A DNA stretch of 1,983 bases, taken from the NCBI RefSeq assembly GCF_003334765.1, contig NZ_QOWT01000075.1. The stretch is one strand, 5' to 3'. This document shows positions 1 through 1,983 of this stretch, piece by piece; within the stretch, counting starts at the first letter, position 1; each line of letters opens with the position of its first letter. The notes beneath the pieces are model-generated. The model saw only the letters and a list, made by a program, of their open reading frames with translations, searched no databases and was not told the DNA's origin. The translations under genes and the position numbers were made by a program. The stretch is from Escherichia coli. GTDB lineage: Bacteria; Pseudomonadota; Gammaproteobacteria; Enterobacterales; Enterobacteriaceae.

Positions 1-225
1 GCTCTGTATCACTGTATTGTCTTCCGGCAACTGATGAGGGCTGGCAGAAGTCGCCGGTGTTTCGGTAGCGTCACGTTCATTCACCACGCGGAGTGAATAA
101 CCGTTTTCAGCGACTTTGTTAATCAGTTCAGCGAGCTCAATACCATCGACGTCAACGACAATGCGCCCCATGTTCAGCGCCTGCGCATTAATGCTGTCGG
201 CTTCCAGCGTCAGGGCCAGTTTCAT
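1..225 (-). CDS. yeeW: YeeW-like protein, 5' portion only (75 codons; continues beyond window start)
   Basis: Manual minus-strand translation from ATG at 225..223 gives MKLALTLEADSINAQALNMGRIVVDVDGIELAELINKVAENGYSLRVVNERDATETPATSASPHQLPEDNTVIQS with no stop up to position 1. N-terminus matches my recollection of E. coli YeeW. The ATG overlaps the toxin stop as ATGA (222..225). Possible SD GGGGG about 9 nt upstream. Not in the ORF track, presumably because it is truncated by the window edge. Confidence 0.7.
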   Translation of the reverse strand, partial: MKLALTLEADSINAQALNMGRIVVDVDGIELAELINKVAENGYSLRVVNERDATETPATSASPHQLPEDNTVIQS

Positions 226-599
226 TGTTTCGCCCCCGGATGTTTACCCAGGGTAATGTTATTTACCGTTCTGTAGTTGTCGCGTGTCATCAGGCCGGTT
301 GCCCGGCGTGCCCGGAGAATATCAATGCTGTTGATTAACTGCGACGGGGCTCCTGCGCTGAATCCCGGCTGGTCGGTACGTACCAGCGCGTATTTTTCAA
401 CGAGAAAGTTCACCGCGTCACACAGTGAAATCCCTGCCTCAATATGCTGCTCAATCACACGTTCATCAGCGAACGGTGTGTCATTCAGCGTGAGGCCATA
501 GTGCTGGTCCAGCAGTCGGGTGAGCAGTGTCTGCCAGATGGTGATGGGAGACGGGCAGCCCGATGCCTCCCGTACGTGAGTGTCGGGTAATGTATTCAT
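222..599 (-). CDS. cbtA: Type IV toxin, CbtA/YeeV/YkfI/YpjF family (inhibitor of FtsZ and MreB polymerisation)
   Basis: ORF-track protein from the internal Met: MNTLPDTHVREASGCPSPITIWQTLLTRLLDQHYGLTLNDTPFADERVIEQHIEAGISLCDAVNFLVEKYALVRTDQPGFSAGAPSQLINSIDILRARRATGLMTRDNYRTVNNITLGKHPGAKQ (125 aa), close to recalled E. coli CbtA/YkfI over most of its length. Start chosen at ATG 599..597, which sits after the antitoxin stop with a weak SD (AGAGAA); the track's 160-aa version begins at a GTG at 704 inside the antitoxin gene. Stop TGA at 222..224. Confidence 0.88.
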   Translation of the reverse strand: MNTLPDTHVREASGCPSPITIWQTLLTRLLDQHYGLTLNDTPFADERVIEQHIEAGISLCDAVNFLVEKYALVRTDQPGFSAGAPSQLINSIDILRARRATGLMTRDNYRTVNNITLGKHPGAKQ

Positions 600-645
600 C
601 TTAAGTTCTCTGTAACAGGTGGTTATAAAGGGGAGATATCCGGTG

Positions 646-1023
646 TTATACGGTGGTTGCGGGCGCTGCCGGTGTCGGATAAACAGCCAGATAAACGTAA
701 CCACAGGAGCCGAGGGTGTCGGCTTCGCAGGTCAGCCCTTTCGCATACAGTGTCACGGTATGCTGATGGCGGGGATTCAGTTCACCACTGGTGAGCATGA
801 GCTCCAGTTGTTTCATCAGCAGCGGAAAGGCCTGGTCCAGGTGGTATGCATCTGCATCGCTGAACCGGCCTCTGATACCGGCGCGGTCGGCAAGGTAATG
901 CAACCGGTTACCCTTCTGCACCAGACGTGCCCCGAAACAGGGCGTCACGGTGCAGGGCAGTCCCCACCAGAGGCGGTCGTGATTGTCGTCGGGAGGCGTT
1001 GTCCCGGGGAGTGTGTCTGACAC
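646..1023 (-). CDS. cbeA: Type IV antitoxin, CbeA/YeeU/YfjZ/YafW family
   Basis: 125-aa translation MSDTLPGTTPPDDNHDRLWWGLPCTVTPCFGARLVQKGNRLHYLADRAGIRGRFSDADAYHLDQAFPLLMKQLELMLTSGELNPRHQHTVTLYAKGLTCEADTLGSCGYVYLAVYPTPAAPATTV matches recalled YeeU/CbeA closely. Start codon is GTG (plus 1021..1023 is cac), preceded by GAGGA at 1031..1035. Stop TAA at 646..648. Lies directly upstream of the toxin, as expected for this pair. Confidence 0.88.
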   Translation of the reverse strand: MSDTLPGTTPPDDNHDRLWWGLPCTVTPCFGARLVQKGNRLHYLADRAGIRGRFSDADAYHLDQAFPLLMKQLELMLTSGELNPRHQHTVTLYAKGLTCEADTLGSCGYVYLAVYPTPAAPATTV

Positions 1024-1102: not shown

Positions 1103-1324
1103 TCAGTTCAGGGTGACGCTCATCAGCCGGACATACGGACCAAAACTGTCCTTACGGCGTTCTGCAAACACAGCCAGTACACCGGGAATATCCTGCACTT
1201 CACGGCCGGTATATGTATCCGTGCTACCGTGCCAGCGGTATTTACCGGTACAGAACGGAAAAAGACGGGATGCAGGATGCTGACGGTGAATACGCATGGC
1301 TTCACCACGGGTGATGATTTTCAT
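1103..1324 (-). CDS. yeeT: DUF987-family small protein (YeeT/YpjJ/YkfH-like), function unknown
   Basis: 73-aa translation MKIITRGEAMRIHRQHPASRLFPFCTGKYRWHGSTDTYTGREVQDIPGVLAVFAERRKDSFGPYVRLMSVTLN matches recalled E. coli YeeT. ATG at 1324..1322 with a canonical AGGAGG SD at 1334..1339 (9-nt spacer). Stop TGA at 1103..1105. Conserved position between the RadC-like gene and the antitoxin. Confidence 0.85.
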   Translation of the reverse strand: MKIITRGEAMRIHRQHPASRLFPFCTGKYRWHGSTDTYTGREVQDIPGVLAVFAERRKDSFGPYVRLMSVTLN

Positions 1325-1410: not shown

Positions 1411-1887
1411 TTAAAGCAGACCGTGTTCCGCAAAGGAGAAAACCTGGCTGCCACCGACTATCAGATGGTCCGGTACCCGGATATCAACCAGGGCCAGTGC
1501 CTGTACCAGACGCTCAGTGATAAGGCGGTCTGCCTTGCTGGGGGGGACTTCACCGGACGGGTGATTGTGCGCCAGCACCACGGCAGCGGCATTGTGGTAC
1601 AGGGCGCGTTTAATCACTTCCCGGGGATGGACTTCCGTACGGTTGATGGTGCCGGTGAAGAGGGTTTCACCGGCAATCAGCTGATTCTGGTTGTTCAGAT
1701 ACAGCACCCGGAACTCTTCACGCTCCAGTCCCGCCATGTTCAGAATCAGCCATTCCCGTGCCGCATGCGTGGAGGTGAAGGCCACGCCGGGTTCATGAAG
1801 ATGGCGGTCCAGGGTTTTCAGGGCCCGCTGAATGAGGCTGCGCTCGCCGGGTGTCATCTCTCCGGGCAGAAAGGAAAGTTGTTGCAT
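1411..1887 (-). CDS. yeeS: RadC-like JAB/JAMM-domain protein (YeeS/YfjY/YkfG family; historically mislabelled DNA repair protein RadC)
   Basis: Translation MQQLSFLPGEMTPGERSLIQRALKTLDRHLHEPGVAFTSTHAAREWLILNMAGLEREEFRVLYLNNQNQLIAGETLFTGTINRTEVHPREVIKRALYHNAAAVVLAHNHPSGEVPPSKADRLITERLVQALALVDIRVPDHLIVGGSQVFSFAEHGLL (158 aa) contains the JAMM signature H-x-H-x7-S-x2-D (HNHPSGEVPPSKAD, encoded at 1528..1569). Start set at ATG 1887..1885, which has GGAGAG 9 nt upstream; the track's longer ORF starts at ATG 1902..1900, which has no SD and abuts the upstream stop. Stop TAA at 1411..1413. Confidence 0.88.
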   Translation of the reverse strand: MQQLSFLPGEMTPGERSLIQRALKTLDRHLHEPGVAFTSTHAAREWLILNMAGLEREEFRVLYLNNQNQLIAGETLFTGTINRTEVHPREVIKRALYHNAAAVVLAHNHPSGEVPPSKADRLITERLVQALALVDIRVPDHLIVGGSQVFSFAEHGLL

Positions 1888-1902: not shown

Positions 1903-1983
1903 TCAATCGATGATGCGCATAATGGCGCTGCATTCCGGATGCTGCAGGGCGTAATCCCGCAGCCGGTAATAATGGACCGTCAT
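1903..1983 (-). CDS. 3' end of upstream gene (26 codons plus stop); possibly a KlcA/ArdB-family antirestriction protein (YfjX/YafX-like) by synteny
   Basis: Minus-strand frame reads ...MTVHYYRLRDYALQHPECSAIMRIID then TGA at 1905..1903, with no internal stop back to the window edge. In CP4-57 and CP4-6 type cassettes the gene immediately upstream of the RadC-like gene is an antirestriction protein, but in CP4-44 it is yeeR, so the product is uncertain. Confidence is for a real coding 3' end, not for the product. Confidence 0.5.
   Translation of the reverse strand: MTVHYYRLRDYALQHPECSAIMRIID

Follow-up and report, generated by a model that had tools for sequence, protein, structure and literature searches.

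The YeeW-like frame that follows the cbtA toxin gene in a genomic island of Escherichia coli is the first part of a 140-aa ORF that joins a complete DUF5983_N domain to a DUF957 domain in a single reading frame. The comparative evidence makes it likely, though well short of certain, that this fused ORF is a genuine and probably old gene, that the short yeeW of strain K-12 is a nonsense derivative of it, and that the pseudogene label given to the locus by the RefSeq annotation pipeline (PGAP) is a by-product of comparison with a 163-aa form of DUF5983. A broader proposal – that CbtA/CbeA type IV toxin-antitoxin modules on enterobacterial integrative islands originally had the fusion as a functional third gene, that the K-12 copy is a relic, that a mislabelled copy is present in about 900 of the 5,426 complete genomes of E. 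coli, and that two independent modules of DUF5983 have been shuffled within the operon – is given only slightly better than an even chance. The gene itself is already known: it is widespread, its exact sequence is public, and both fused and split contexts are described in a 2026 preprint. What is added here is an argument, drawn from sequence comparison, for an intact fusion of the N-domain and DUF957 rather than a pseudogene.

The operon and its open frame

Over all of its 1,983 bases the window (the whole stretch of DNA analysed) matches the chromosomes of E. coli 042, 55989, O104:H4 outbreak strains and others with 100% identity. Of the 5,426 complete genomes of E. coli, 4,942 carry copies related to the window, usually three each. 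The operon order is antirestriction–radC–DUF987–cbeA–cbtA–YeeW-like, and the island is integrative and bears Ag43. The genes of the window are:

225 downwards, minus strand: YeeW-like ORF, last gene of the operon (ORF translation)
1..225, minus strand: window part of the 140-aa ORF (L001 5803–6225), with its ATG at 225–223 and its end 198 nt beyond the window edge
222..599, minus strand: cbtA-family toxin gene (PGAP, at 6222–6599 of the locus; 222..704 in the ORF list)
646..1023, minus strand: cbeA antitoxin gene (PGAP, ORF list)
1103..1324, minus strand: DUF987 (yeeT-like) gene (PGAP, ORF list)
1411..1887, minus strand: radC/JAB-domain (yeeS-like) gene (PGAP, ORF list)
1903..1983, minus strand: antirestriction (PF03230) gene, 3' end only, with its start outside the window (PGAP)

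Translation of the minus strand from 225 to 1 gives an ATG and 74 further sense codons, open to base 1 (MKLALTLEADSINAQALNMGRIVVDVDGIELAELINKVAENGYSLRVVNERDATETPATSASPHQLPEDNTVIQS), in agreement with the preliminary description, which reported a YeeW-like frame open for at least 75 codons to the edge. The remaining two minus-strand frames of this interval contain many stops. The probability of 75 open codons by chance is about (61/64)^75 = 0.03; chance is not the issue for this frame, which has a Pfam match and homology to K-12 YeeW. In the genomes 100% identical to the window the frame continues past the edge for 65 more codons, and neither a stop nor a frameshift lies just beyond position 1. 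The suggestion that this is a longer copy than that of K-12 was therefore borne out with the flanking sequence, while the suggestion that it is an intact long version was not – the ORF is without the PF19419 C-terminal domain, and its tail is DUF957.

The ATG of the YeeW-like ORF overlaps the TGA stop of cbtA in an ATGA motif (a 4-nt overlap), which suggests translational coupling. The linkage to cbtA recurs, as ATGA in E. coli and in Hafnia and as GTGA in Serratia, with one exception. This is a metagenomic contig (L015 1216–2518, protein P0188) on which a fused N-domain–DUF957 gene is followed by a DUF4942 gene, with no cbtA or cbeA upstream on the contig. Its layout suggests that the association of the fused gene with DUF4942 may be no weaker than its association with the toxin.

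In strains 042 and 55989 the sequence beyond the window holds a DUF957 CDS and then a DUF4942 gene. A terminator-like GC hairpin with a T-run lies outside the window, about 30 nt past the stop of the 140-aa ORF (L001 5749–5775, minus strand), and is followed by a promoter-like site ahead of the DUF4942 gene. Terminator-like hairpins in this position suggest that the fused gene is the end of the cbeA–cbtA transcription unit. A comparable hairpin and T-run, identified by eye, lies past the fused gene of Serratia (L017, about 4395–4430). The DUF4942 gene (L001 4876–5718, minus strand) has a match to phrog_6263, a DNA methyltransferase family (E 8e-15), and to two unannotated PHROGs, and had zero matches in PADLOC. 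The end of the island adjoins cadC in 042, where an integrase fragment lies alongside, and the gsp/yghD cluster in 55989; these different flanks indicate that the element has inserted at different chromosomal sites.

Parts of the 140-aa product

The window encodes the N-terminal domain and nearly all of the linker:

55..216, minus strand: DUF5983_N (PF25638), complete, residues 4–57 (model positions 1–56 of 56, E 1.2e-27, 95.8 bits)
1..54, minus strand: linker rich in Pro, Thr and Ser, about 19 aa, residues 58–75 of about 58–76 (low pLDDT, alignment)

The complete PF25638 match, together with 73% identity to K-12 YeeW, supports the YeeW-like identity first proposed for the frame. The linker region, which includes the stretch ...SPHQLPEDNTVIQSVMPLTTE..., is predicted to be disordered, and its length varies between genera. 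The DUF957 part, residues 76/77–140, follows in frame and lies wholly beyond the window. Residues 76–140 are the same as the PGAP CDS WP_085949090.1, 'DUF957 domain-containing protein', of 042 and 55989, which is 65 aa long with a GTG start that begins at the first base outside the window. This half is 94% identical to the separately annotated DUF957 protein of O157.

Domain searches beyond the N-terminal match returned little. The copy of Pfam-A that was used gave no model for the DUF957 part of the 140-aa ORF and did not find the PF19419 C-terminal domain in it, and the precomputed Pfam assignments of the 140-aa clusters list PF25638 only. Scans of the 140-aa ORF and the 163-aa form with NCBIfam and with PADLOC, for defence systems, found 0 families. 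Matches among PHROGs were weak or unannotated only (phrog_20979, E 0.003; phrog_5003 for the C-domain). PDB sequences searched with the protein itself and with a profile of its N-domain gave nothing meaningful, and an Rfam scan of the window gave no match. Neither the family matches nor the structural ones pointed to what the protein does.

The AlphaFold2 (AF2) model of the full 140 aa had a pLDDT of 58 and was left out of the fold search for its low confidence, with values below 50 at residues 45–62 and 67–76. Residues 1–60 were modelled at a pLDDT of 79 as a beta-hairpin and a helix. The DUF957 half was modelled as a helix-loop-helix (pLDDT 73–85) around a nearly invariant acidic loop, IFDNDEDxTDS. 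The loop lies at residues 100–112, between the two predicted helices, and its sequence, (I/F)FDND(E/D)xxTDS, hardly varies from Escherichia to Serratia. One idea is that it resembles the loop of a metal-binding helix-loop-helix, although it does not have the Glu with which a canonical EF-hand loop ends.

Stop and sense alleles within E. coli

Three related arrangements are found after cbtA in E. coli – a short form that ends at a stop codon, the fused form of the window, and a long form with a different C-terminal half. The short and fused forms differ at the stop position:

22..27, minus strand: codons 67–68, CCG GAA (Pro-Glu) in the window and CTG TAA (Leu-stop) in stop alleles (DNA alignment, codon table)

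The stop and sense alleles are just two substitutions apart, in adjacent codons, and in the stop alleles, too, the 24-nt spacer keeps the frame up to the Met of DUF957.

The YeeW of K-12 (b2006, YEEW_ECOLI, in the CP4-44 cryptic prophage) is 64 aa long, encoded by 195 bp, and ends ...HQLL-TAA. The statement in the preliminary description that this copy is short was correct; its alternative, that the copy is annotated as a pseudogene, does not hold, as b2006 is currently an annotated CDS with no pseudogene flag. K-12 YeeW and the window copy share the N-domain, the position right after cbtA with the 4-nt overlap, and the tail '...TETPAT(S/Y)ASPHQL'. Unlike the window copy, K-12 yeeW has a 12-nt deletion at its 5' end and a different start Met. 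The DUF957 gene downstream in K-12 has an internal deletion (L004 1523–1615, strain NEB 5-alpha) and is annotated as a pseudogene. In the 28Eco12 allele, which encodes 67 aa and also ends ...HQLL-TAA, the DUF957 ORF behind the stop is still intact.

The long form (Aec77-type; WP_000976853.1 of O157:H7) is 163 aa and consists of the N-domain and PF19419 (about 96 aa, about 280 nt). It has its own stop, and a separate 65-aa DUF957 gene (Aec78-type) with an AGGA ribosome-binding site begins 11 nt downstream in another frame. The long form and the window copy are alike in the N-domain, in DUF957, in operon position and in the DUF4942 gene that follows. Between its N-domain and DUF957 the long form has a segment of about 340 nt, which encodes PF19419, the stop and the AGGA site; the window allele has about 65 nt there. 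An origin of the short form by clean deletion from the long form was rejected – the segment has been replaced, with no alignable remainder. By sequence, the window copy is best described as the short form minus its stop, joined to DUF957, and not as an 'intact' 163-aa DUF5983. Homologs are 64 or 67 aa in stop alleles, 118–140 aa in fused proteins and 161–163 aa in the long form, so the roughly 75 aa that had been allowed for as a normal length is not one.

Several proteins fall outside these three arrangements. Four proteins of 203–234 aa (P0047, P0050, P0060 and P0062, 'aec77') are long-form DUF5983 with the 3' part in another frame, running into DUF957; their possible origins are a frameshift mutation, an error of assembly, or the programmed frameshifting put forward in the 2026 preprint. 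The 161-aa P0082 has an N-domain of the short type, the linker and the first DUF957 residues ('VMPLTTE') joined to PF19419, a mosaic that indicates recombination between paralogous copies of the island.

A census of the 5,426 complete genomes was made with allele-specific 34-mers, in which each 28-nt seed covers the discriminating codon; being allele-specific, the counts are lower bounds. The sense (GAA) type was found in at least 899 genomes, at 1,020 places, and a second sense allele (a GCT variant, also GAA) in 4. At least 2,348 genomes had the stop (TAA) type, and in 11 of 12 sampled rows of TAA-type matches the flanking sequence was of the K-12 variant. The PF19419 DNA segment was found in 3,817 genomes and the junction of the K-12-type internal DUF957 deletion in 3,949, one copy each. 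One copy per genome agrees with a CP4-44 locus that is passed on vertically and is decaying, and this decayed version comes near to being part of the core genome. There are 961 contigs on record with the exact 140-aa protein, under GenBank names that include 'hypothetical protein', 'Aec78' and 'phage protein', and there are many clusters of 140-aa proteins at 80–99% identity, the largest with 518 members.

Fused homologs in other genera

Among 1.84 billion representative proteins searched, there were only 201 relatives. Proteins that carry the N-domain and DUF957 in a single ORF, at 48–60% identity, were found in three other lineages. Those of Hafnia alvei are 121 aa long, with several alleles including WP_279075695.1, and are named 'YeeW-like domain-containing protein' in UniProt; those of Serratia sp. 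DD3 are 118 or 121 aa (WP_023491175.1) and are present in multiple copies; and a metagenomic protein is 134 aa. As in the window copy, the Hafnia and Serratia genes are single two-domain ORFs whose start overlaps the cbtA stop (ATGA or GTGA). The Hafnia, Serratia and window ORFs have the motifs EAD...G.I.V.(V/I)DG and WL(Q/E)DNID...(I/F)FDND..xTDS..LLP in common. The linkers of the Hafnia and Serratia proteins are shorter and are not alignable with the E. coli linker.

No in-frame ATG precedes the DUF957 part in the Hafnia or Serratia fused genes, so that DUF957 could scarcely be produced there other than in fused form, and RefSeq treats these homologs as intact proteins. For a real fused gene, the sequence evidence from other genera is stronger than that from within E. 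coli. The polarity of the change, with the fused state as the older one, is likewise probable from the architecture of the outgroups and not from the codon site, the outgroup linkers being unalignable.

Serratia sp. DD3 also has a free-standing 106-aa PF19419 gene (L017; L018 2774–3094) between radC and cbeA, in the place that DUF987/yeeT occupies in E. coli. Its product is 54% identical to the C-terminal half of the 163-aa DUF5983. A free-standing PF19419 indicates that DUF5983 consists of two separable modules, and therefore that the absence of PF19419 is not in itself a defect.

Competing interpretations of the locus

In the genomes identical to the window, RefSeq/PGAP annotates part of the fused ORF as a pseudogene:

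28..225, minus strand: 'DUF5983 family protein, pseudogene, missing C-terminus' (locus 6028–6225)

This label is probably wrong, judging from the sequence comparisons, but the reading behind it deserves to be weighed. In it, the YeeW-like ORF is a dead vestige of a gene for the 163-aa DUF5983, stripped of its C-terminal domain, DUF957 is a gene in its own right, 65 aa long and with a GTG or ATG start, and the continuity of the frame between them has no consequence. The split annotation of 042 and 55989 is consistent with such a history, as is the lack of the PF19419 region in the window allele, and the most widespread arrangement is the long form with a separate DUF957, going by the 3,817 of 5,426 genomes with PF19419 DNA. 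There is also a candidate start for a separate protein – an ATG at codon 77 is kept in six of seven fused E. coli alleles, and this ATG, along with the intact DUF957 behind the TAA of the 67-aa allele, suggests that DUF957 may be made alone from an internal start.

Against the remnant interpretation, the N-domain is complete and shows the mark of constraint. Seven E. coli alleles, with protein sequences as much as about 20% apart, all have the frame open. Their dN/dS values (Nei-Gojobori) are 0.41 (N-domain), 0.18 (DUF957) and 0.59 (linker), the last from 19 codons only and underpowered. These ratios suggest purifying selection on both domains; the linker value would also fit a non-coding spacer. 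By eye, only a weak Shine-Dalgarno-like GAG lies ahead of the internal ATG. The seventh allele (P0041, L008 3001–3423), 79% identical to the window protein and with no DUF4942 gene downstream, has ATA (Ile) at codon 77, which removes the internal Met able to start a separate DUF957. The single ORFs of Hafnia and Serratia without an internal ATG, accepted by RefSeq, and the separability of PF19419 as a module also speak against the remnant, which on this evidence is considered unlikely.

A second alternative is a neutral accident. A recent change of TAA to GAA in a short yeeW like that of K-12 would by luck have put it in frame with DUF957, and the resulting fusion would be tolerated but unselected. 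The small distance between the alleles, with the spacer in frame in both, is in keeping with such an event, and the linker it would have created is weakly constrained. Yet the sense allele is far from a rare variant – it is present in 899 complete genomes, with alleles down to about 80% protein identity – and the same architecture at 48–60% identity in three other lineages would not be expected of a recent accident in E. coli. The K-12 flank variant at 11 of the 12 sampled TAA rows also counts against it, and the internally deleted DUF957 of the K-12 locus suggests that it is TAA that is the derived, decaying state. The accident is considered quite improbable, less probable than the remnant.

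The reading implied by the preliminary description, an intact full-length YeeW/DUF5983 of which the K-12 copy is a truncation, has the frame open past the K-12 stop position in its favor, but with no PF19419, no alignment to the 163-aa form after residue 57 and a downstream half that is DUF957 it is rejected as very nearly untenable.

The preferred interpretation is that the fusion is a genuine gene, translated as one two-domain ORF, and that its arrangement is probably the older one. The yeeW of K-12 would then be a derivative of the fusion truncated by a nonsense mutation, whose DUF957 remainder has also been internally deleted, and the 163-aa form would be another combination of modules, the N-domain with PF19419, rather than the 'complete' version.

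Possible function and significance

The mechanism is the weakest step of the proposal. In it, the fused gene would share a transcript with cbtA and be coupled to it in translation. A survey published in mBio in 2023 describes DUF5983 as the constant downstream partner of CbtA, a statement of co-occurrence only (PMC10790755). A recent preprint (bioRxiv 10.64898/2026.06.09.728211, June 2026) describes ANF00264, an AntiFam entry, as a confidently folding, small and probably dimeric globular domain encoded beside cbtA/cbeA. The contexts reported for it are fusion to DUF5983, a separate position behind a DUF5983 with an 'incomplete C-terminus', and a separate position after a non-coding gap (bioRxiv 10.64898/2026.06.09.728211). 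These match the locus of the window; the likening of ANF00264 to DUF957 is by context and not by the AntiFam profile. The fused examples in the preprint carry PF19419, and programmed frameshifting is proposed for them (bioRxiv 10.64898/2026.06.09.728211). The window allele, unlike those examples, is a plain in-frame ORF that needs no frameshift.

Under the proposed mechanism the fused gene would encode a small cytoplasmic protein in which, in line with the structure prediction in the preprint for ANF00264, the DUF957 half probably dimerizes. Such a dimer would present two N-domains on flexible linkers, and its role might be accessory, either to the island or to the CbtA/CbeA module.

The known mechanism of the toxin-antitoxin module is unchanged by these findings, and their importance is mainly for annotation: a neighbor of a well-studied toxin-antitoxin pair has been split by RefSeq into a pseudogene and a small CDS, where the comparative evidence favors one two-domain protein. 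As the K-12 copy of yeeW has probably been truncated to a relic, work on CbtA/CbeA in that strain may overlook a third component of the operon.
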